From: an uncultured archaeon
GTDB taxonomy: Archaea; Asgardarchaeota; Jordiarchaeia; Jordiarchaeales; Jordiarchaeaceae
Assembly (NCBI GenBank): GCA_964510585.1
Contig: CAZECW010000150.1
Location: 1 to 32,000 of the forward strand
Length of the DNA stretch: 32,000 nt
Direction of reading: 5' to 3'
How positions within the stretch are numbered: position 1 is the first letter of the stretch; each line of letters begins with the position of its first letter. Below are positions 13,146-31,650 of the stretch, piece after piece. The translations under genes and the position numbers were made by a program. The notes under the pieces are model-generated. The model had not been told where the DNA came from. It saw only the letters and a program-made list of their open reading frames with translations, and did no database searches.

Positions 13146-13616
13146 ATGTCTTCGAGGTTGGATCCCTTTATTGATGCTCTTATTTTCTGCACCGTTGTAG
13201 GCTCTTTGGATAAGATGGGACTAAACCCAATGTTGTTAGCTCGTCAGGCTGGCAGAGAAATGGAATCCACAATAGGTGCTTCGATTAAACGGCTTTTAGG
13301 TGTAAACCCCCCATCAACATTGGAAGAGCACTGCAAGATATCTGAAGCGTTTTTTAAACCCGCCCAGACAGCAGACCCTGATAAGACCAAAGTCTCGTGC
13401 TCGGGTAATGTTATCATCATGGAGATAGTTGACTGCGCATACCTAACCCAAGCTGAGTTGGGAAGAAGCTTAGGATACAACGCCTGCCCACTATGCATTC
13501 AAGCCTTCTGCGAATCTGCCTTAACCAAAGCTGTAAATATAGCTGAGATTGAAAGTTTCCAGGTGGAACGCAATAAGGACACTTGCACCGTTAAAATAAA
13601 ACTGTTAGAAAAATAA
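13146..13616 (+). CDS. Small Cys-rich protein, V4R/MetOD1-like fold candidate (paralog 1)
   Basis: ATG after GAGGTG; MEIVDCAY, CPLC and C-terminal DTCTVKIKL; clearly paralogous to the next gene; fold assignment is inference. Confidence 0.6.
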   Translation: MSSRLDPFIDALIFCTVVGSLDKMGLNPMLLARQAGREMESTIGASIKRLLGVNPPSTLEEHCKISEAFFKPAQTADPDKTKVSCSGNVIIMEIVDCAYLTQAELGRSLGYNACPLCIQAFCESALTKAVNIAEIESFQVERNKDTCTVKIKLLEK

Positions 13617-13640
13617 AATAGTTGCGAGGTGTACAACATA

Positions 13641-14099
13641 ATGCGCGAAGTAGATCCAAGCTACAACGCCCTAATTTTATCCACCCTATTCCGTGCTTTA
13701 GACAGGGTTGGTATGAATCCCATGTTAATAGCCCGCAATGCTTCCGAGTTGTTATCTAAACTGTTTGAAGGCCCAGCCAAACAGATTTTTTGTGGAAGGC
13801 TGCCATCAACTGTGGAAGAGCTCTTAACTCAAATTGAAAAGCTAGGAATCAGCAGAGCACAAGAAAAGTCTGAACATTCTTTCTCCAACGGCGTTATAAC
13901 AATGAAGACTGTTGATTGCATATACCTACCCCTAAATGCCGTGGGAAAGAACATGGGATACAGGGGTTGTCCAATGTGTGTCCAAACTCTCCTACTAGCT
14001 GGTTCACTTAAAGCCCTAAATCTGGGTGAGGCTAAAGACATTCGCCTAGAAAACAACGAAAACACTTGCGTCCTAAAACTAGAAATGACAGAAAAATAA
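13641..14099 (+). CDS. Small Cys-rich protein, V4R/MetOD1-like fold candidate (paralog 2)
   Basis: ATG after GAGGTG; MKTVDCIY, CPMC, NTCVLKLEM; shares GxNPMLxAR and PSTxEE with paralog 1. Confidence 0.6.
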   Translation: MREVDPSYNALILSTLFRALDRVGMNPMLIARNASELLSKLFEGPAKQIFCGRLPSTVEELLTQIEKLGISRAQEKSEHSFSNGVITMKTVDCIYLPLNAVGKNMGYRGCPMCVQTLLLAGSLKALNLGEAKDIRLENNENTCVLKLEMTEK

Positions 14100-14439
14100 T
14101 CCACACCACATACCTTAAGGCAAAAACACTCTTCAAAATTACGAAACGTCTCAACATTTCCCTTTTTAGCTAGGAAAAAAGAAATAAGAGGACTAACAGG
14201 ATAACGAACCCAAAAATGCTCCAATCTTTACCTTTTTTTACTCCCATTTTCTAAAAAAGGGTGACTGCCCTATATGCCCCTTATTCATCTGAAATAAAGG
14301 TTTACCTTTTCTCTGCCACCATTAACTAGGCAAGAGGGAATCTTTAGGACACACAAGACTGTGGACATCTTCGTCGTGGAAAATAGTCAAAACTCCTTTA
14401 CACTACAAAGGCTTTTGCGCTTGTACTATTCCCCCTTTT

Positions 14440-15477
14440 TCAGGTTATGGTTTTGAGTGTCTCTGTAAGTAGCTTTATAGTGTTTTCCACATCCCTCAGA
14501 TCCACCACCTCTACTGGTGAGTGGGTGTATCTTAAGGGTACACACAGGGGGCAGGTGGCGACTCCTTCGCGGGCGAGCTGTACTGCAGCTCCGTCTGTGG
14601 AGCCCATAGCTACTGCCAGTTGGTAGGGGATGTTCATTTTTTCAGCGGTTTCAATTAGCATTTCTCTGGGCTGCCTATCTGAAACGAATCTCACGTCCAC
14701 TGCTCGGATTACTGGCCCTTTTCCTAATTCTATGGTTGTAGTGTAGGGCTTTACTCCCGGGAAATCTGCTGCGCCTGTGGTATCTATCGGGAATGCGATT
14801 TCTGGCTTTAGGCTGTAGGCAGATACCGTAGCTCCTCTTAGTCCTCTTTCTTCTTCTACAGTGAAGGAGTAAAGTAAGTCTGCTGCGATTTCTTGGTCTT
14901 TTAGTCTCTTTATGCATTCTATTGCCACGAGGCAGCCTATCCTGTCATCGAAGGCTTTACCACAGATGCGGCTTCCTAAAAGTTCATCTAGGCCTCTGTG
15001 GAGAGTTATTGGGTCAACCACTCTCACTCCTGCTTCCATGGCCTCTTCCCTGCTTGATGCGCCGATGTCGATGAACAAGTTTTCAGCTGGAATCACCTTA
15101 TCTCGCTCCTTATCGGTGGTGAAGTGTGGTGGGATGATGCCTATGCTGCCTTTAATTTTTCCTTTTCTTGTGTGAATGATGACTCTCTGCGCCGGAAGAA
15201 CTCTGTTATCTATTCCCCCCAAAACTTCAAATCTTATAAACCCCTTATCATCAATGGCTTTTACGACGAGCCCCACTTCGTCCATATGTGCGTCAACTAG
15301 AACCCTTGCGGCTCCCTTTCCCTGAACTTGGGCTAAAACGTTTCCCAGTCGGTCAACCTTAACCTCATCTACATAGTCCTCAATTTTGGAAACAATAAGT
15401 TGAGCTATTTCTGTTTCAAAACCGGAAACTCCAGGGGTAGATATTAATTCTTTTATTAGTGGAATCAATTCACTCAT
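14440..15477 (-). CDS. M42 family (TET-like) metallo-aminopeptidase
   Basis: PGVSGFE, DAHMDEVG, GKAFDDRIG, TVEEERGLRGA, GSTDG, RYTHSPVE. Confidence 0.95.
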   Translation of the reverse strand: MSELIPLIKELISTPGVSGFETEIAQLIVSKIEDYVDEVKVDRLGNVLAQVQGKGAARVLVDAHMDEVGLVVKAIDDKGFIRFEVLGGIDNRVLPAQRVIIHTRKGKIKGSIGIIPPHFTTDKERDKVIPAENLFIDIGASSREEAMEAGVRVVDPITLHRGLDELLGSRICGKAFDDRIGCLVAIECIKRLKDQEIAADLLYSFTVEEERGLRGATVSAYSLKPEIAFPIDTTGAADFPGVKPYTTTIELGKGPVIRAVDVRFVSDRQPREMLIETAEKMNIPYQLAVAMGSTDGAAVQLAREGVATCPLCVPLRYTHSPVEVVDLRDVENTIKLLTETLKTIT

Positions 15478-15635
15478 TTACTATTCCTCTCATACGATGT
15501 GCTTAACCTATTTAAATCGGGACTCACACATTTATAGATTGTTTTCCACTTCATAATAAGAATATTTGAAGGCTCTCTATTTTCTTATCTATAACAAATT
15601 TAACTAAGTGGGCTGCTCCAAAAGAAAGAGTTTTA

Positions 15636-16469
15636 ATGACGGTATGTGGAGTATTCTTAGGGATTATTATGGGAGATGGTAGAAGTTCTGGAGCGGGATT
15701 GGTGCTCTGTTTAACCATTTTGGGATTTGCAGTGTGTTTACTTTTTGCCCTCTGGCCGCTGGCATTTATCATACTCTTTTTGGGACTGGTTACCTTCTGC
15801 GCCTTGGAATCTAGTAGAAAAGGAACAGTGCCAAGAACACCACAGGATACAAGGCCGAGGAGGTACGAAGTAAGAACTCCACCCACCCCCACCACTGAGG
15901 AATATCGCCGCCCCTATTTTAGGGAAACTCCCGAAAAACCACAAGTAAAAGTTCCAGTGAAGTATGATGAAGAAGTAACCGCATATGACAGGGCGATTGA
16001 AAGAGCCCCGGAGGCAGAGACCGTTGACCTTAGTAGAAAAGGGGTATATCGTTGGGGGGAGCTGGAAAAAGCCGAGACTTCGACTTTAAGTGAGACTGCT
16101 CTGAGGGGAGAGCCTCCTTATGGGGGAGCCGAGGAAGAAAGCGATTTGTATGGATTAAAAGAAAAATTGGAAAGCACCAAAGCCAAATATAGGTCAATGA
16201 GCTACGGAACCGAAGCGGCAGAAAAAGCTAAAAAAGAAGTCAAAATGCCATCCGTTCCAGAGAAGACACAGGAACAAGAAGATTTAGAGAGTCAAGAGGA
16301 GGCAAACCGAATCCTACTGGAAGAATTGAAAAAACGTTGGATGTCTGGAAAAATAGATGTTGCTATGTACAATAAACTCAAAGAGAAGTACGAAAAGAAA
16401 ATCGCAGAAATAGAAAAACAGAAGAAAAAAATAGCAAAAAACAGCTCAACACAAGCCAGCACAAAGTAA
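15636..16469 (+). CDS. Hypothetical membrane protein with a charged low-complexity linker and a C-terminal SHOCT-like helix
   Basis: Hydrophobic segment at about aa 20-57; LEELKKRWMSGKIDVAMYNKLKEKY resembles SHOCT. Confidence 0.65.
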   Translation: MTVCGVFLGIIMGDGRSSGAGLVLCLTILGFAVCLLFALWPLAFIILFLGLVTFCALESSRKGTVPRTPQDTRPRRYEVRTPPTPTTEEYRRPYFRETPEKPQVKVPVKYDEEVTAYDRAIERAPEAETVDLSRKGVYRWGELEKAETSTLSETALRGEPPYGGAEEESDLYGLKEKLESTKAKYRSMSYGTEAAEKAKKEVKMPSVPEKTQEQEDLESQEEANRILLEELKKRWMSGKIDVAMYNKLKEKYEKKIAEIEKQKKKIAKNSSTQASTK

Positions 16470-22560: not shown

Positions 22561-22896
22561 ATACCGAAAATCACAGATAAATTCCTAATAAAAGAACTGG
22601 GAATCGACGACCTAAAAACCACAAAGAAGAAGATCATAGAAGCAGTGACCGAATTAGTCAACAGCTATGAAACCCTCTGGGACCTCCTGATGGGCTGCGT
22701 AAGAAGTCCAGAATGCAAAAAAGACCACGAATTAGAAATAGCTGATGTCATCGAAGAAGCAATAGGCACCGACTGCGACAGCGTCCACGACTTAGAGGAA
22801 GAATACTACGAAGAGTACGAAGAGGAAGAAGAGGAAGAAGAAGAGGAAGAGTACGAAGAGGAAGAAGAGGAAGAAGACTACGGGGATGAGGAGTAA
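22561..22896 (+). CDS. Small hypothetical protein with a poly-Glu/Tyr acidic tail; probable ATA start
   Basis: The frame of ORF 22645-22896 is open back to a TAA at 22537; AGGAGGA at 22548-22554 precedes ATA 22561 (MPKITDKFLIKELGIDD...). Confidence 0.65.
   Translation: MPKITDKFLIKELGIDDLKTTKKKIIEAVTELVNSYETLWDLLMGCVRSPECKKDHELEIADVIEEAIGTDCDSVHDLEEEYYEEYEEEEEEEEEEEYEEEEEEEDYGDEE
22810..22877 (+). repeat. 36-nt period tandem duplication within a GAA/GAG-rich tract
   Basis: gaagagtacgaagaggaagaagaggaagaaga occurs at 22810 and 22846. Confidence 0.8.
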
Positions 22897-22966: not shown

Positions 22967-24202
22967 TTATGTAACCTCTGGTTTTGTTTCATGTTCACAA
23001 TATTCGTCTCCTTTGGCAACACATTTTACTTCCTGTGTTGAGCACTTCCTTCCAGTTAGTATTTCGTAGAGTCCGGATATTATTCCGCTAAACCAGAATC
23101 CTATGGGTTTTCCAAAGTTTTGGAATTGGTTGCATATGGGGGAGTTTAAATGTTTTGTGCGGAGCATGTTAGTTGTATCATTGAGTTCGCCAATGAATCG
23201 GCCGAATCCTCTTAGTGAATTAAATTTAGTGTATATTGGTATCGCTTCGCTTAGACTTGGTTTGAATTGTCTCATGAAGTCTTCAACCACTACTCTGCTT
23301 CTCTTTTTGCCTTGATTGTAGATTATTTTGTACGTTTCTTCGTAGCCGAATTTTTCTATCATGGTCTTGATAAATTGTGCCATGTATCTGGTTTCACTTA
23401 TAATCACTCTTGCACCTAAAAGTTCAACCACACCTCTTTCAGGCATCTTTAGGTGTTGCTTCATTCTGTGAAATTCTTCCATTATTTCTGTGCTTAATTC
23501 GATTCCTCTTCTCCCCACATTATAGAGAATGAGGTCGTCTACATAGTCCAGTGTGGGTGATTTGGAGACTCTGAGAAATCTTTTATAACTATTGTCCACC
23601 TCAAATATTTTAAGCTCAACAACATAATCAAAGATGTGCTTTAATGTGCTTATTATCGTGTCATCTAACATAGACTTGTTAAAAACGAAAAGCGATGTAC
23701 CAAACTCACTTAGTAGAATCTTACTCTTGTATATCCAATTAATAATTTTGTCTACATCCCTCCCTTTTGACAGCATAATGTTGCTCAAATAACACACATT
23801 AAAGCTATGCTCATATTTCTTCATGAATCGAATAGTCCCATGGAGATAAACGTCAAGATGAAGAATATCTCTTGGATCATCGATGATGAACTTTTCTTCG
23901 GATTGGAGTTTTTCGTACATGTTGGTGAAGCCGTCAACCAGGAAAAACTTTTTTTCCTTCTCAAATTCTTCAAACCTAGAATTAAAAAACTTTAACCATT
24001 CCCTAATCCGCATTGGTGGTAAATCGAGGTCCAGAATTAATCCATAGTCTCCTTTTTTTAATCTAAAATCCATTATCTGCAAGGGCAAAATCTCACCCAT
24101 AGTTCCGGTTTCAGTTAACAGTAGGACTTGGGCATTCTTCTCAAAACCGCCTCGTGTCAAAAAATCGAAGGCAGGAATGCCTGTACTTAACAACTCCATC
24201 AC
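22967..24202 (-). CDS. Inactive KaiC-like ATPase domain fused to a C-terminal V4R domain
   Basis: LSTGIPAFDFLTRGGF, degenerate Walker A TETGTMGE, HIFDYVVEL..RFLRVSKSP; V4R with RGFG, NSPIC, EVKCVAKGDEYCEH. Confidence 0.85.
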   Translation of the reverse strand: MMELLSTGIPAFDFLTRGGFEKNAQVLLLTETGTMGEILPLQIMDFRLKKGDYGLILDLDLPPMRIREWLKFFNSRFEEFEKEKKFFLVDGFTNMYEKLQSEEKFIIDDPRDILHLDVYLHGTIRFMKKYEHSFNVCYLSNIMLSKGRDVDKIINWIYKSKILLSEFGTSLFVFNKSMLDDTIISTLKHIFDYVVELKIFEVDNSYKRFLRVSKSPTLDYVDDLILYNVGRRGIELSTEIMEEFHRMKQHLKMPERGVVELLGARVIISETRYMAQFIKTMIEKFGYEETYKIIYNQGKKRSRVVVEDFMRQFKPSLSEAIPIYTKFNSLRGFGRFIGELNDTTNMLRTKHLNSPICNQFQNFGKPIGFWFSGIISGLYEILTGRKCSTQEVKCVAKGDEYCEHETKPEVT

Positions 24203-24255
24203 TATTCACCCAGGAAGCAAGTAAAAACTCGAGCCTACATTTTCACCTATAGCTT

Positions 24256-25518
24256 TCATACCCGTGAATGTTTTACGATAAATTCGCAATAATCATCCCC
24301 CTTTGCTACACATTTTATCTCTTCACACACGTAATGATCTCCAGTAAAGATTTCGAAGGCCCCCGCTATTAGTCCCGCCCTGAGCCAACCAGTAGCCTTA
24401 CCAAGACCTTTGAAATGTGAACAGAAAGGAGAATTTGCAACTCTAAACCTGTAACTATTTGTTTTTTCGTCAAATGTGAAGTCTGTGGCCCCCTGTCCCC
24501 AGAGCTCTGTTAGTTTAGCCAATGATTCAGCCGCCTTTTTAAGATCAGTTATTTTGAACTGCTCCCTGAAATCTTTAACTAATGGAAAGCCAACTTTTCC
24601 CTGATGGTACATAAACTTACTGGCCTCCTCGTATCCGAACTCTTCTATCATCATTTCAAAAACCATAGGATAAAATTTTGGGTCCTGAATAATCACTCTC
24701 GATTCTAGAAATTCGAGGACGCCTTCTTCTAGCATTTTCAATTGTTGACTTATATAATCGAAATCCTCAACGGTTTTAGTACTCAGAGCAAATCCTGTGG
24801 GTCTTATCTCGTATGGAACAAAATCATCTCGATAAGTAGGAGATGGTGATTTAACCACCCTCAAATACTTCTGAAACTTTCTGTTCACCTCAAATATTTT
24901 AATGTCTAAAACGTAGTCGAACATATGCTCTAGGATTTTTTGGCTTCTTTCTTCCAGCATACCCTTATCTAAAACAAAGATACACAAGCCGAGCCGGCTA
25001 AATCTTGTTATCGCTTGATAAATGAAATTTATGACCTTGTCCAGTTGCCGTTTCCTAAATAGGAACAAGTTGCTGGAAAACACAAGAATACAAACATTGG
25101 GTTTTCGTTGCTCAATTATTTGTGAAAGTTCAGATAAGTAAGCATTGATGTGGACAATGTCTCTAGGTTTTTCTATTATATGTTCTTCGTTAGAGAGGGG
25201 CCCCTCGTACATCCTCGTAAAACCGTCTATCATAAAAAACCGTCTATCTTTTTCCAACTCTTCAACGTTGAACTTTTTAAATTTAAACCATTCCCTAATT
25301 CTATTTGTGGGAATATCAAAATCTATTATGAAACCCGTATCCCCCAGAAATAATCTATTAGCAAACAAGTTAAGAGCCACTATCTCTCCCATGCTTCCCG
25401 CTTCGATCAAAAAAAGAACAGAGGAATGCCTGAGAAATCCACCGCCACTCAAACCATCTATTTCTAGATTCCCTGAACTAACTAATTCCACAAGGTTCCC
25501 CCTTTTGGAAGCTATCAC
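24256..25518 (-). CDS. Inactive KaiC-like ATPase domain fused to a C-terminal V4R domain (tandem paralog)
   Basis: VSSGNLEIDGLSGGGF, IEAGSMGE, HMFDYVLDI..KYLRVVKSP; V4R with WGQG, NSPFC, EIKCVAKGDDYCEF. Confidence 0.85.
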   Translation of the reverse strand: MIASKRGNLVELVSSGNLEIDGLSGGGFLRHSSVLFLIEAGSMGEIVALNLFANRLFLGDTGFIIDFDIPTNRIREWFKFKKFNVEELEKDRRFFMIDGFTRMYEGPLSNEEHIIEKPRDIVHINAYLSELSQIIEQRKPNVCILVFSSNLFLFRKRQLDKVINFIYQAITRFSRLGLCIFVLDKGMLEERSQKILEHMFDYVLDIKIFEVNRKFQKYLRVVKSPSPTYRDDFVPYEIRPTGFALSTKTVEDFDYISQQLKMLEEGVLEFLESRVIIQDPKFYPMVFEMMIEEFGYEEASKFMYHQGKVGFPLVKDFREQFKITDLKKAAESLAKLTELWGQGATDFTFDEKTNSYRFRVANSPFCSHFKGLGKATGWLRAGLIAGAFEIFTGDHYVCEEIKCVAKGDDYCEFIVKHSRV

Positions 25519-26035: not shown

Positions 26036-26917
26036 TTATTCTTTGGGATTTCTACTTATTTCTTTTTTGATTTGTTGCAGTTTTTGTGCTACATCTTCCT
26101 TAAGTGAGTAGGAATATTCTTCTGTGGGAAAAAGCTCTTTTTCTACTTCCTCCTTGTACTGTAGCACCGCGTTTTTAATGGCTTCTCTTACATTTCCGAA
26201 CCTTTTTACAAATTTTGGTTTAAAGCCCTGGTTAATCCCTATGGCATCATGCAATACCAAAACTTGTCCGTCACAGTGGATACCCGCGCCTATTCCTATG
26301 GTGGCAGCTTCCACTGATTCTGTTATTAGCTTAGCAACCTGCCAGGGTATCCCCTCAAGCACAATCGAGAAGACGCCCGCCTCATCTAGAGCCTTTGCAT
26401 CTTCAAGTAAAGCTTTTATTGCCCTCTCAGTTCTGGCCTGAACCTTATGACCTCCAAAAATATGTATGGATTGTGGGGTGAGTCCGATATGCCCCATTAC
26501 TGGAACACCAAGGTTGAGAATCGCCTTCACCACTTCTATTATCCTTTTTCCACCTTCCGGCTTAACGGCTTCGGCTCCACCTTCCTGAACTAGACGCATA
26601 GCGTTTTTCGCAGCAATCTCGGGAGTTATGCAGGAGCCGAAAGGCATATCTCCCACAAGTAAAGCGTACTGAGTTCCCCTCCGTACAGCGGCTGTGTGTC
26701 TCACCATATCTTCCATTGTTACGGAAAGAGTATCTTTATATCCCAAAACATTGTTTCCTAGAGAGTCACCCACCAGAATTATGTGTACTCCTACCTCGTC
26801 CAAAATCTGAGCTGTGGGAGTATCATAGGCGGTTAGCATAACGATTTTTTTACGCTCCTCCTTCATTCTCTTAATATCAAGCACAGTTATTTTTTCTCGT
26901 TCCATTAAAACCATCAA
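26036..26917 (-). CDS. panB: 3-methyl-2-oxobutanoate hydroxymethyltransferase
   Basis: MLTAYD, LVGDSLG, GDMPFGS, MGHIGLTPQS, TIGIGAG..CDGQVLV. Confidence 0.97.
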   Translation of the reverse strand: MMVLMEREKITVLDIKRMKEERKKIVMLTAYDTPTAQILDEVGVHIILVGDSLGNNVLGYKDTLSVTMEDMVRHTAAVRRGTQYALLVGDMPFGSCITPEIAAKNAMRLVQEGGAEAVKPEGGKRIIEVVKAILNLGVPVMGHIGLTPQSIHIFGGHKVQARTERAIKALLEDAKALDEAGVFSIVLEGIPWQVAKLITESVEAATIGIGAGIHCDGQVLVLHDAIGINQGFKPKFVKRFGNVREAIKNAVLQYKEEVEKELFPTEEYSYSLKEDVAQKLQQIKKEISRNPKE

Positions 26918-27253
26918 CCTACTTCACTCTTTAAATTAAGAAAAAATAAGATCACCTTAAAAAATGTGCTGTACAAAAATATTTGCGTATACTTCTCAGA
27001 TCAAGAACTGTATGTCTTGGCAACATTTCTCTTTGCTATGAAACATATTTTCTTCCTTCACTCGTAGAAACATATGTGGAAGGGTTTGTGTAGAACGATA
27101 AAGACCAGAAGGGATGCAGAGGCAAAACTTTATTTATGAGCGAGAAGCAGATTGAAAACATATTTTTGATTCAAAAACTCTTAACCGTTATATCTTACGA
27201 AAAAATTATATCCTCTCTGAAGAATTGTCTCTTGCGAGTTTATAACACTTTTT

Positions 27254-27261
27254 AGGAGGTG
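27254..27261 (+). promoter_or_regulatory. Shine-Dalgarno site of hdrA
   Basis: AGGAGGTG 8 nt before the in-frame ATA at 27270. Confidence 0.75.
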
Positions 27262-27269
27262 TTTAAAAA

Positions 27270-29213
27270 ATATCTGAGAAAAGCGATATACGCATAGGTG
27301 TCTTTGTCTGCGGCTGAGGCACTAATATATCAGGCGTTATCGATGTGAGAGCGTTAAAAGAATACGCTTCTACACTAGCAAACGTTGTTGTGGCTGAGGA
27401 GTCAACTTCGCTATGTACAGAAGCAGGCGCAAACCTCATCAAAAAGAGCATTAATGAAAATAATTTGAATCGTATAGTAGTGGCGTCCTGCACTCCAATA
27501 ACCCATGAATCAGTGTTTAAAGCAGTGCTGGAGGATGCGGGGCTAAATCCTGGATTGCTTGAATTCGTAAACATACGGGAACACGATGCATATGTTCACA
27601 GGAATCAACCGGAAGAAGCTCTGGAGAAGGCTAAAGATCTAATCAGAGCCGGCGTGGCTCGTGCAAACTTTCTTGAAGAGATCCCCACAAGAGTAATACC
27701 CGTGGAGAGAAAATCTCTCGTTATTGGTGGAGGAATTTCAGGAATTCAAGCAGCTTTGAACCTTGCAAATGATGGTTTTGAAGTCTTTCTAGTTGAAAAG
27801 AGCCCTACCATAGGAGGAAAAATGGCTCAACTAGACAGAATCTTTCCAACGGATGACTGTGCGATATGAATTCTAGGTCCTAAAATGCTTGAAGTAGCAA
27901 GAGAACGTAATGTTAAATTATTAACCTACTCAGAAGTGGAGAAGATAGAAGGGTACTTGGGTAACTTTAAGGTGACAATTAAGAAGAAACCTAGGTACAT
28001 CATCGCTGAAAAATGCAATGGTTGCGGTGTCTGTGAAGAGGTATGTCCAGTATTCAGACCAAAAGAGTTTGACGAAAATATGGGAATCAGAAAAGCAATC
28101 TACATTCCTTTCCCCCAAGCAGTGCCCAAAATAGCTATAATCGATATGGAACACTGTATAAAGTGTCGACTCTGCGAAAAAGTGTGCGAATTTAAAGCAA
28201 TTGACTTGGACCAAAAGGAAGAAAAAATAGAGTTAAGTGTAGGTACAATCATAGTCGCAACCGGATATGATCAGTATAATCCAGAAGGAAAATATGGTTA
28301 TGGCAAGTATGAGAATGTCATTACACAGCTTCAACTGGAGCGATTACTTGCACCTAATGGACCAACCGGCGGCCACTTGGTGAAATTATCTGATTTGAAG
28401 AAACCTGAGAGTATTGTTATGATTCAATGTGTTGGCTCTAGAGATTTGAATTCCAATCAGTACTGCTCTGACGTATGCTGTATGGTGGCCATAAAGAATG
28501 CAAAGCTAATAAAGCAGGAATATCCAGACGTAGAGGTAACAATCTGTTACATGGATATAAGGTGCGCAGGGAAGGCTTGGGAAGAATACTATACCAGAGC
28601 GAGAGAATATAACATAAAATTCATTAGGGGAAATGTCGGCTCAGTTAGAGAGAATCCCGAGACAAAGAAATTGATCGTTAGAGTTGAAGATACTCTGAAC
28701 AGTGAGATAAAAAGGATAGAGGCTGATTTAGTGGTTCTTTCAGTTGCAATGGTTCCTTCCAAAGACTCCGAAAGGCTAGCAAGCATCCTGCGCCTAGATA
28801 GAAGTCCAGGAGGTTTCTATAAAGAGAGACACTCGGTGCTTAGTCCAATAGATACTAAGGTTCCAGGAATATACGTTGCAGGCGCGGCTCATGGACCCAA
28901 ATCTGTACCAGAAGCTGTGGCTCATGCCAGTGGTGCAGCTGCTGCAGCAGCGATACCCCTAATTAAAGGTAGGTACACGATAGAACTCGTATCCGCTACA
29001 GTTGATAAAGATCGGTGTAATCTGTGTGAATTGTGCGTAAATGTATGTCCGATTGGTGCAATTACGGTCAAGGATGGTGCTATTGAGATTAATGAGATAA
29101 TCTGTAAAGGTTGTGGTTCTTGCGCTTCGATGTGTCCTTCTAGAGCTATGACTGTGAGGTTTTACAGGCCAAAACAGTTTGAAACGTACATTGATGCTCT
29201 GTTTACAACTTAG
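27270..29213 (+). CDS. hdrA: Heterodisulfide reductase subunit A, selenoprotein with 2 Sec (UGA at 27315 and 27867), 647 aa
   Basis: Single frame: RIGVFVCG-UGA-GTNISGVIDV matches CHCGxNI; DDCAI-UGA-ILGPKM matches DCSICILxPKM; also VASCTP, GGGISG, QCVGSRD, YCSDVCC and four CxxCxxCxxxCP motifs; joins ORFs 27345-27869 and 27885-29213. Confidence 0.93.
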
Positions 29214-29227
29214 TCGGGGTGTTCTTT

Positions 29228-29659
29228 ATGAGTTTAAATTTTGAAGTTTTCACTCCCAAAATTGCTGCGTTCTTATGCTTGAAGTGAGGTTACGGTGCAG
29301 CTGATATGGCTGGAACAATCAGAAGCCAATACCCAACATCAATAAGAGCGGTTAAGGTTAGGTGTTTAGGCATTGTGCATCCTGACTACATACTAAGGGC
29401 TTTATGCAAAGGAGCAGATGGGGTACTTTTAATAGGGTGACGAATAGGAGAATGCGACTATGAAACAGGGAACATATCTGCAACTAAACATGTGGGATAC
29501 TTAAAACAGGTATTGCGTGCTATAGGATTAAGTGAAGAACGTTTGCAAATTTACTACTGTTCCTCAGCAGAGGGATCATTATTCGCTGAAATAATCAAAA
29601 AGGTAACAGAAGTGATCGCGAAACTAGGACCCAATCCAATTAGGCAAACTAAAAGCTAA
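29228..29659 (+). CDS. mvhD: MvhD/VhuD [2Fe-2S] hydrogenase delta subunit, selenoprotein with 2 Sec (UGA at 29285 and 29438), 143 aa; absent from the ORF track
   Basis: Manual translation: MSLNFEVFTPKIAAFLCLK-U-GYGAADMAGTIRSQYP...VRCLG...GADGVLLIG-U-RIGECDYETGN...ERLQIYYCSSAEG...LGPNPIRQTKS-TAA. Confidence 0.95.
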
Positions 29660-29704
29660 GTAGTGTGAGCCTCGTAGGTAAACCTTTGACTATGAGGGGA
29701 CTAC
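29660..29704 (+). promoter_or_regulatory. Eukaryote-type SECIS element (3' UTR)
   Basis: GTAG/CTAC helix I, G-UGAG/GGAC core with tandem G.A pairs, CCTCGTAG/CTATGAGG helix II, apical AAA; begins directly after the mvhD TAA. Confidence 0.8.
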
Positions 29705-29745
29705 CCCCTTAAGGCGAGGGGAAGCTATGACTAATCTACTCTCAA

Positions 29746-30861
29746 ATGAAAGTTAATGGAACGGGAATTTCGGAATTGAAGACAGGTGACTATGTAATAG
29801 CGAGCAGTAAGGACGAAAGATTATCTGCAACATATGGAGGAGGAGCCATCCAAACTATTCTCAAAAAAATGCTGGAAAATAAATTTGTGGAAAAAGTTGT
29901 GCTTTTTCAAGAAAAAAAGGATAGATACAGTCTGGCTCCAGTAGTAATAGAAAATCCAGACCAACTAACCTCTATACCTCTTTCTCAATTCAGTGCGTAC
30001 TACCTTTCTGGACTTAATAGTGTGCCCAAATATATCCAGCAGAATTTAAAAAACGCTGGAAAAATAGGTGTTATAGCAAAGCCATGCGATATTAGAGCTA
30101 TGGTTGAACTAGAAAAAAGGAAGCAAGCAAATTTAGATAACTTGGTAATTTTGGGGGAGGAATGTCACGGCAAGGTTTCACCAAAAAAGGTTCAAAAAAT
30201 ATTAGAGGAAGAACGGGTTGACGCAAGTAAAGTAATTAGTGAGATGATAGACGGCAATAAGTTTAATATTAGTTTTGAGGGTGGAAACAAAAATTATATT
30301 TTGGGGAAGAAGCTTGATTTGGAAGAGAGTTGTAAAAGGTGTGGGGAGAGGGAACCAAATATTTCAGACATTTCATTTCAAGTTGTTAAGGACAACGATA
30401 AAACAAAAACTTTAATACATATAAACTCAGAAAGGGGATTAAAAATTATTAAGTTAAGCTCAGAAGAATTGAACTTGGAAAAAGCAAAGGAAGAAGTGTT
30501 GGAACACGCTGAGAGAAATATGGCTCTATCAATTTTGAAGGCAGAAAGGTACAAATTAAAACAATTTAAAAATTTTGATAAATTATCCGAGGTAGAGGCA
30601 TATAACTATTTCAAGAAATTAATTGAAAATTGTAGGAAATGCGGAAACTGCATAAGGGCATGCCCAATCTGTGTCTGCTTAGATTGTACAGTAATTAAGC
30701 AGAGGAAGGAAATAGAACCAACTTTATACTTCCTACTTAGGATGGGACACATGGGCAAAGCATGCGTAAATTGCGGCATCTGCGATTCATCATGTAATTT
30801 TCTGGATCTGGGGCCGAGCCTGATATTCCATAGGCTTAGCGAAATTTCTAAAAAAGGATGA
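29746..30861 (+). CDS. FdhB/FrhB-family coenzyme F420 dehydrogenase beta-like Fe-S flavoprotein
   Basis: GGGAIQTIL, GVIAKPCDIRAMVEL, ILGEECHG, ESCKRC, CRKCGNCIRACPICVC, HMGKACVNCGICDSSC. Confidence 0.88.
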   Translation: MKVNGTGISELKTGDYVIASSKDERLSATYGGGAIQTILKKMLENKFVEKVVLFQEKKDRYSLAPVVIENPDQLTSIPLSQFSAYYLSGLNSVPKYIQQNLKNAGKIGVIAKPCDIRAMVELEKRKQANLDNLVILGEECHGKVSPKKVQKILEEERVDASKVISEMIDGNKFNISFEGGNKNYILGKKLDLEESCKRCGEREPNISDISFQVVKDNDKTKTLIHINSERGLKIIKLSSEELNLEKAKEEVLEHAERNMALSILKAERYKLKQFKNFDKLSEVEAYNYFKKLIENCRKCGNCIRACPICVCLDCTVIKQRKEIEPTLYFLLRMGHMGKACVNCGICDSSCNFLDLGPSLIFHRLSEISKKG

Positions 30862-30981
30862 ACATGTAAATAATACTTCGTATTACAAATTTCCTTTCAG
30901 AAAGATGTGGTGGGGGGTATTACCTTGAAGGAGAGGAATGAAAATTTCAGAAAACTGTTTCAAAAGGTGTCTGTTTCATTT

Positions 30982-31650
30982 TTACTTTGTTGGTTTCTTT
31001 AACTTCTCTAAGATCTCGTCCCATATTCGTGTGTGTTCCCCTGAATAGTGGAATTTGTTTCTTTCTATTTCTATAACATCCTTAACGGGGCAACTGTTAA
31101 TACAAGCTCCACAAAGAATACATTTTTCTTTGTCAATTTCAACCTTTCCCGACTTCTCCCAGCTCTTTCTTTTCGGGATACTTAACGCCCCGACTGGGCA
31201 TATCTCCACACATGTGGAGCATCCTCCTGGACACTTTTCGTTGTGTATTTTTATCTCTCCCTCGAAAAACTTGTATGCTTTTCGGCCTGTTTTCTCACAG
31301 TATACTTCTGTTTTTTCAATTTTGGGCAAGGCTCCTTTCTCAAGAATTATAAGTTCATGTTCTCCATCTATGGTCAGCTCGAAACACTCAAATGGGCATA
31401 ATATTTCACAGACACCGCAGAAGGAACACTTTTTTTGATCTATTACTACTGTGGGGGCACTTGTTAAACCCTTCAGGGAGGCTCCTACTGGTCCACGCTG
31501 TATAGCTTGCTTTGGACAGGCTGTTAAACAGATTCCGCATCCAATGCACTTGTTTCGGTCAAATGTAAGTTTTAGGTGTTTTGTCAACATTTTCAATTCA
31601 ATAACCACTTTGTCAGTGTCTACTGTTTTTGAAAATGCTGGAATTGCCAA
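30982..31650 (-). CDS. Polyferredoxin, FwdF-like, with four [4Fe-4S] motifs
   Basis: CIGCGICLTACP, CSFCGVCEILCP, CPGGCSTCVEICP, CILCGACINSCP; likely TTG start at 31650 after AAGGTG. Confidence 0.85.
   Translation of the reverse strand: MAIPAFSKTVDTDKVVIELKMLTKHLKLTFDRNKCIGCGICLTACPKQAIQRGPVGASLKGLTSAPTVVIDQKKCSFCGVCEILCPFECFELTIDGEHELIILEKGALPKIEKTEVYCEKTGRKAYKFFEGEIKIHNEKCPGGCSTCVEICPVGALSIPKRKSWEKSGKVEIDKEKCILCGACINSCPVKDVIEIERNKFHYSGEHTRIWDEILEKLKKPTK

Follow-up and report, generated by a model that had tools for sequence, protein, structure and literature searches.

How are four in-frame UGA codons, spread over two adjacent genes, decoded when the only recognizable selenocysteine insertion sequence (SECIS) follows the second gene? 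The question is raised by the hdrA-mvhD pair in a 32,000-nt stretch of DNA (contig CAZECW010000150.1, positions 1 to 32,000; hereafter the window) from an uncultured archaeon of the Asgard class Jordarchaeia. In the answer that we favor, to which we assign a probability of roughly 0.8 from sequence comparison, one 3′ eukaryote-like SECIS would direct selenocysteine (Sec) into all four UGAs from a single shared hdrA-mvhD mRNA. The features on which this answer depends are given below with their coordinates in the window.

27255-27261, + strand: GGAGGTG, a Shine-Dalgarno-like motif 8 nt ahead of the likely hdrA start.
27270-29213, + strand: hdrA, encoding a heterodisulfide reductase subunit A-like flavoprotein, probably of 647 aa with ATA 27270 as the start; stop codon TAG.
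27315-27317, + strand: UGA 1, HdrA residue 16, in a CxU motif; likely Sec.
27867-27869, + strand: UGA 2, HdrA residue 200; the canonical Sec site.
29214-29227, + strand: the 14-nt spacer between hdrA and mvhD, with a Shine-Dalgarno-like GGGGTG.
29228-29659, + strand: mvhD (vhuD/frhD), encoding 143 aa; start ATG, stop TAA.
29285-29287, + strand: UGA 3, MvhD residue 20; likely Sec.
29438-29440, + strand: UGA 4, MvhD residue 71; likely Sec.
29660-29704, + strand: a type I eukaryote-like SECIS, directly past the mvhD stop.
29705-29721, + strand: an accessory hairpin of 5 bp with a 7-nt loop, adjoining the SECIS on its 3′ side.

Reading TGA as Sec opens two frames, one that ends in the TAG at 29213 and one that runs from the ATG at 29228 to the TAA at 29659. 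Under the standard code, hdrA splits into pieces of 174 and 442 aa and the mvhD frame is unlisted, which makes the locus an annotation trap in which standard gene calling cuts the first gene in two and overlooks the second. The original prediction had counted four in-frame UGAs across the two genes, and the count holds (27315, 27867, 29285, and 29438), with the proviso that decoding all four requires a non-standard hdrA start. The HdrA frame matches NCBIfam NF040770 over model positions 1-640 of 777 (E 1e-250, under the whole-protein cut-off), and its closest solved HdrA is PDB 9sfi_A (E 3e-228 across residues 5-645), in whose alignment UGA 1 stands opposite a Cys and UGA 2 opposite a non-standard residue X. 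MvhD is a full-length match to Pfam PF02662 (140.9 bits), matches NF045873 VhuD (E 1e-42), and also matches positions 647-774 of NF040770, a fused-type HdrA model. The in-frame UGAs are thus found at conserved Cys/Sec positions, including two in MvhD and the one near residue 200 of HdrA, which is the canonical HdrA Sec position (PMC4989117).

The four sites were compared at 20 related loci, which had been fetched because their mvhD carries TGA. Of the 19 loci that cover the UGA 1 site, 15 have TGA and 4 have Cys there, and the UGA 2 site is TGA in all 20. UGA 3 is likewise TGA in 20 of 20, in loci chosen for a TGA in mvhD, and UGA 4 is TGA in 18 and Cys in the remaining 2. Alternation of TGA with Cys among relatives is the usual sign of a selenoprotein.

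The SECIS behind mvhD consists of a lower helix (GUAG/CUAC), three unpaired bases, a GA·GA tandem (a GUGA...GA core with GUGA at 29665), an upper stem of 8 bp (29670-77/29690-97), and a 12-nt loop, GUAAACCUUUGA. The UGAs lie 227, 380, 1,798, and 2,350 nt upstream of the element, the last being UGA 1. A reach of 2.35 kb falls within the range of eukaryotic SECIS elements. The succession of a helix, a 3-nt bulge, and a tandem GA is what we take to be a kink-turn layout, and the core is predicted to form a kink-turn. Such a fold is also expected for the Lokiarchaeota (Loki) element (Mariotti 2016, PMC4989117). Across 12 aligned elements, 86.6% of 202 stem cells are paired and 9 of 17 pairs have two-sided changes, as compared to 37-54% paired in slid-register controls; these covariation figures are inflated, as the sequences are related and the structure was drawn from the same sequences. 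For the accessory hairpin, 91.7% of cells are paired and 3 of 5 pairs have two-sided changes (12 sequences), and a hairpin folds behind all 20 SECIS elements recovered by the descriptor described below. Such a hairpin is also present in the class behind elements specific to hdrA and behind those of selD, and its loop often contains AGC. The 62-nt element (29660-29721) folds with both the upper stem and the hairpin.

Could hdrA have a SECIS of its own? The two genes are only 14 nt apart (the TAG ends at 29213 and the ATG is at 29228), which, as had been claimed, leaves no room for an hdrA 3′ SECIS. A covariance model, R1, built from 11 related elements with the window's own left out, finds the element at 29658-29724 with 61.1 bits (E 1e-15). 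The next best of the 17 matches listed for the window has 10.2 bits, with 5.0 the best inside hdrA and 9.2 the best inside mvhD. Genome-wide, R1 gave 7 matches, four with E < 0.01, all at hdrA/mvhD loci. A second model, R2, which is sequence-only, without base pairs, and built from a 20-row alignment out of register that includes hdrA-specific elements, gave a single match in the window. A broader descriptor recovers 20 of 21 related elements and has one match in 26900-31000 on the + strand; a stricter first descriptor also had one match, whereas 60 shuffled sequences averaged 0.2 matches, with one or more in 9 of them. Three weak matches within hdrA (−3.3 to −4.8 kcal/mol) came from a loose descriptor, all of them without the RUGA core.

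Other types of signal were searched for as well. The euryarchaeal-type GAA_A SECIS (three S-S pairs) has no match in 26900-31000, and no stable or conserved bacterial-type hairpin was found behind any of the four UGAs (11 60-nt segments, z −1.74 to +0.9). An Rfam scan of 26800-31200 returned five matches at E up to 10 with no SECIS family among them, and is uninformative here because even the real element is unmatched. No terminator-like site was found in the 14-nt spacer by a sigma-70-type promoter/terminator scan, which is uninformative for an archaeon. The covariance scan of the coding sequences and the 5′ region agrees with the original prediction in finding no SECIS besides the 3′ element, and a separate hdrA element, named there as the observation that would speak against sharing, did not appear. 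The window's element is a single SECIS behind mvhD, within a sensitivity limited to known shapes.

Relatives of the pair provide natural variants of this arrangement. In a midpoint-rooted tree of 24 HdrA proteins, the window protein groups with those of genomes G004 and G002, which have split genes and one element. The sister clade (100/100) consists of G001, G003, and G005, in which a single frame comprises both genes and has the same four UGAs, with one homologous SECIS; the pair is thus fused in three of the five congeners. The SECIS element family therefore covers the same span within one open reading frame (ORF) in that clade, where the TGA that stops the fused frame doubles as the UGA in the SECIS core. 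The midpoint-rooted tree leaves the order of fusion and fission undecided. A decayed copy with internal sequence deleted, similar to the fused type, is present in the host genome (G000; 3.78 Mb, 96% complete) at C179:283-1141, with UGA 1 lost and the SECIS still recognizable (52.5 bits). A separate clade (G000:C76, G005, G006, G007, and G009) holds a paralogous pair with two SECIS-like elements at all five loci examined, the first lying in the long spacer that follows hdrA (∼116 nt at C76) and the second behind mvhD. The C76 copy (13316-15855) has 2+2 UGAs. These dedicated hdrA elements have an ordinary shape and were detected by the methods used, so a dedicated element can be detected where it exists, and the window is judged to have none. 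In all 18 split pairs examined, hdrA stops at TAA or TAG (TAG in the window), and in 6 of 20 cases mvhD ends in a TGA at or just ahead of the SECIS.

The two closest of 30 HdrA loci are from Jordarchaeia, with 87% and 81% identity, and the host genome encodes SecS (435 bits), EFSec/SelB (302 bits), and SelD (228 bits), all above cut-off. The SecS, EFSec, and PSTK-like genes are clustered on contig C146, and a Sec-containing SelD is encoded on C193. The genome also carries many Cys-type hdrA and mvhD paralogues (C188, C76, C20, C146, C196, and C3) and 12 mvhD-like matches.

If one element does serve all four codons, hdrA and mvhD would be co-transcribed, and hdrA translation would begin at AUA. 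The GA/GA core would form the kink-turn and recruit EFSec with Sec-tRNA through a protein factor; SBP2 is absent from Asgard archaea (PMC11227280). The mRNA would then loop to serve ribosomes at each of the four upstream distances, on both cistrons. Because a UGA at the end of hdrA would be read through, that gene would have to end in UAG or UAA. UGA 1, at codon 16, would become recodable only after a further 2.35 kb had been transcribed, so that the first ribosomes would stop there or stall. The two proteins made would be the HdrA flavoprotein and the MvhD [2Fe-2S] adaptor of an electron-bifurcating complex, for which the product of the downstream gene is a candidate partner:

29746-30861, + strand: an fdhB/frhB-like gene of 371 aa, with PF04422 and PF04432, ending in TGA.

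This ORF starts 24 nt past the accessory hairpin, and its TGA lies 1,138 nt downstream of the SECIS element. The terminal UGA had been taken for a true stop, and this is likely, because the orthologue in G004 stops at a TAG one codon later. Beyond the TGA the frame reads Thr-Cys-Lys-TAA, such that readthrough would add four residues only, and neither R1 nor the descriptor found a SECIS-like match behind the gene up to 31000. This stop says little on the polarity of the SECIS.

Several observations weigh against the shared-element reading. Its reach of 2.35 kb is beyond the methanococcal SECIS range of 80-1,300 nt quoted in PMC2933860, and a 91-nt stretch wider than the element folds differently at minimum energy, with the hairpins pairing with each other (z −2.34). 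The PSTK-like gene scores 206.7 bits, under its cut-off of 290.5. In addition, selD carries an in-frame TAA within an insert and is functional only if the insert is removed. No tRNA-Sec was found in the host genome with Rfam RF01852, ARAGORN, and two pattern scripts, or in any of the five congeners. ARAGORN finds only 6 tRNAs in the whole host genome, so tRNA detection fails generally here; intron-rich tRNAs have been reported for the class (PMC11291895; bioRxiv 10.64898/2026.10.13.758758), and tRNA introns would likely explain the missed tRNA-Sec. Finally, an element of another shape could escape detection, as R1 is narrow (it picked up only 1 of 5 hdrA-specific elements and failed to find the one of selD) and the design of the descriptor was guided by these very elements.

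This last point leads to the idea that hdrA has its own signal of unrecognized shape, located either within its coding sequence or in the 5′ leader, and that the 3′ SECIS serves mvhD only. For methanococcal fdhA, a SECIS in the 5′-untranslated region has been suggested (PMC2933860), and the three weak matches of the loose descriptor would also fit such a signal; however, these matches are without the RUGA core, the searches with R1, R2, the broader descriptor, and the GAA_A pattern are all empty there, and the dedicated hdrA elements of the paralogous clade have an ordinary shape, which makes a private hdrA signal unlikely. More unlikely still is a start at GTG 27345, past UGA 1, which would leave three UGAs to decode and a longest reach of 1.8 kb. 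Its appeal is that an in-frame TAA at 27264 leaves no ATG, GTG, or TTG ahead of UGA 1 at 27315 and that, among 30 long ORFs behind GGAGGTG in the host genome, 24 use a standard start within five codons, non-standard starts being the minority. From the same TAA we infer that hdrA likely starts at AUA 27270, which lies 8 nt past GGAGGTG. In G004 and G005 an in-frame ATT stands 8 nt past the same motif ahead of hdrA, and in G001 and G003 an in-frame ATT stands 9 nt past it, together with an upstream in-frame ATG. Against the GTG, then, stand the spacing of the motif and the ATT of these four congeners, the UGA 1 site, at which all 19 loci have TGA or Cys, and the conserved N-terminal IGVFVCxC strand aligned to the solved HdrA, which a start at 27345 would drop. 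A literature search on non-AUG starts in Asgard archaea returned nothing relevant.

It could also be argued that the distant UGAs are recoded without a cis SECIS, either in trans or independently of any SECIS, hdrA then perhaps being transcribed separately. No SECIS-binding factor is known for archaea (PMC2933860), and co-transcription of hdrA and mvhD is itself a supposition, but UGA is still a stop in non-selenoprotein genes here, such as the fdhB-like ORF, and every examined Sec-hdrA/mvhD locus of the class keeps a cis element; we give this idea as little weight as the GTG start. Least credible of all is that the UGAs are read as Cys or Trp or that the genes are decaying. While the missing tRNA-Sec and the decay of a related pair at C179 would fit, TGA alternates with Cys only, the frames are intact apart from these codons, and the scores of SecS, EFSec, and SelD exceed their cut-offs. 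Long-range, polycistronic recoding by a eukaryote-type SECIS stands as the best reading of the locus, with no separate hdrA SECIS found; what did not survive from the original prediction is its novelty, which had been placed in the lineage and the arrangement. The arrangement is described in PMC4989117 and PMC11227280, and Sec-HdrA and Sec-MvhD with SECIS elements have been reported for Jordarchaeia (PMC9723677).

The selD insert mentioned above opens a lead outside the window that is more interesting than the hdrA-mvhD finding itself. In the host genome, the insert is a 30-nt hairpin with the in-frame TAA (G000:C193 53626-53655). An insert of 30-34 nt that introduces a stop or a frameshift is found at the same position in 10 of 11 genomes of the class, the eleventh match starting past the site. 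Each selD insert has a 4-bp central helix and an inner stem of 8-10 bp, and cutting it at the bulge-helix-bulge positions restores a conserved DVY-A(I/M/K)G motif. With its weak outer helix, the motif belongs to the relaxed bulge-helix-bulge type. The selD gene apparently starts at CTG behind GGAGGTG. An insert of 29-35 nt with a similar build is present in gatE in all 11 genomes, with a full central helix in 10. These bulge-helix-bulge-type inserts in selD and gatE are likely mRNA introns. The other host inserts are as follows:

G000:C18 16244-16273, − strand: gatE insert, at profile position 86-88.
G000:C18:27688-27718, − strand: cbf5 insert, 31 nt, a canonical bulge-helix-bulge that splits the Asp codon of the HAGTLD motif.
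G000:C180:1146-1173: insert in a TIGR00375 family gene, 28 nt, frame-shifting and of similar build; a fourth candidate, less tight (236/250) and known from the host genome alone.

The flanks of the inserts meet at adjacent profile positions, namely 90/91 in selD, 88/90 in gatE, and 66/68 in cbf5. The last gene turned out to be a positive control of the intron screen, though not planned as one, since cbf5 is a known archaeal pre-mRNA intron gene in Crenarchaeota (PMC2738675). The screen gave 152 rows, most of which look like chance. The possibility that splicing of an intron at the spacer fuses hdrA with mvhD was considered and rejected, as no such case is among the 80 of 152 rows listed or in the filtered remainder; the window's hdrA and mvhD are without a bulge-helix-bulge insert. 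In a sister family (G006-G010), the start of mvhD has a canonical bulge-helix-bulge insert of 21-22 nt in all five genomes, which ends one base ahead of the first Sec codon and is frame-shifting in four of them, and the mvhD coding sequence of these genomes contains the SECIS at its 3′ end. We lean slightly toward the view that in Jordarchaeia splicing gates the decoding of the four UGAs, through the class-wide selD insert and the sister-family mvhD insert, and that these together with gatE, cbf5, and the TIGR00375 gene would make up a set of mRNA introns spliced by the tRNA endonuclease. The class also holds three hdrA-mvhD states, split/one-SECIS, fused, and split/two-SECIS, which would make long-range SECIS sharing directly testable. 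No paper describing mRNA introns in Jordarchaeia was found in a search at the level of titles and starts of abstracts, with most subscription literature outside it.

Elsewhere in the window, two tandem ORFs of ∼411 and 420 aa occupy 22967-25518 on the − strand, which we presume to encode a KaiC/RecA-type ATPase plus V4R-domain proteins. At 22645-22896 on the + strand lies an ORF of 83 aa whose long acidic tail is rich in Glu and Tyr.

How does the locus compare with known systems? The shared SECIS of hdrA-mvhD is a further example of an Asgard arrangement published in 2016 and 2024 and not a discovery. In Lokiarchaeota, one SECIS serves up to six UGAs of hdrA-vhuD across ∼2 kb (Mariotti 2016, PMC4989117), and across Asgard archaea a single element is shared by "almost all" hdrA/frhD pairs (Huang 2024, PMC11227280). 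As in the Loki pair described in PMC4989117, hdrA lies upstream, the spacer is very short, a single eukaryote-like SECIS follows the second gene, several UGAs are spread over ∼2 kb, and hdrA never ends in UGA. The locus described here differs from that account in its Jordarchaeia host and in having four UGAs. The element itself has GUGA where lokiSECIS has AUGA, 8 Watson-Crick pairs in place of a 9-bp stem, and a 12-nt loop that starts with GUAAA and ends in A, as compared to an 11-nt A-rich loop ending in G. It thus lies outside the strict lokiSECIS dimensions, and AUGA is found in 11 of 11 related elements aligned. The 3′ accessory hairpin goes unmentioned in the available text of PMC4989117, and the spacer described there as "invariably very short" contrasts with the paralogous Jordarchaeia pair with its two SECIS. 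The window element does fit the type I eSECIS-like definition of Huang 2024 (PMC11227280), which has a GA_[G/A]A core, a stem of 7-15 bp, and a loop of 8-20 nt without a ministem (here GUGA...GA, 8 bp, and 12 nt); the GUGA core and the loop start G[U/G]AAA are both variants listed in that work. Jordarchaeia genomes are within the Huang 2024 data set, and the main text as available is without the words "fused," "fusion," "hairpin," and "intron."

For the class itself, Sun 2021 (PMC9723677) reported Sec-HdrA, Sec-MvhD, and SECIS elements in Jordarchaeia. Its account of selenoproteins and that of Valentin-Alvarado 2024 (PMC11291895), covering Jordarchaeia and Freyarchaeia, report Sec machinery, tRNA-Sec, and eukaryote-like SECIS for the class, with selenoprotein-SECIS distances of 30-500 nt, and sharing is not discussed in the accessible text. 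The methanococcal GAA_A SECIS (PMC9622424, PMC2933860) is alike in being an untranslated-region element that acts at a distance, with no strict distance limit in a reporter tested at 520-679 nt (PMC9622424), but its core differs and no element of its type was found in 26900-31000. The present finding adds one Jordarchaeia example to the published Asgard pattern, and its value is comparative. What is added here is the fused sister clade, the paralogous pair with two SECIS, the likely AUA start of hdrA, and the conserved hairpin past the SECIS. The split/one-SECIS, fused, and split/two-SECIS forms within one genus are ready constructs for studying how one element serves two cistrons, a step that bears on the origin of eukaryotic selenocysteine decoding.

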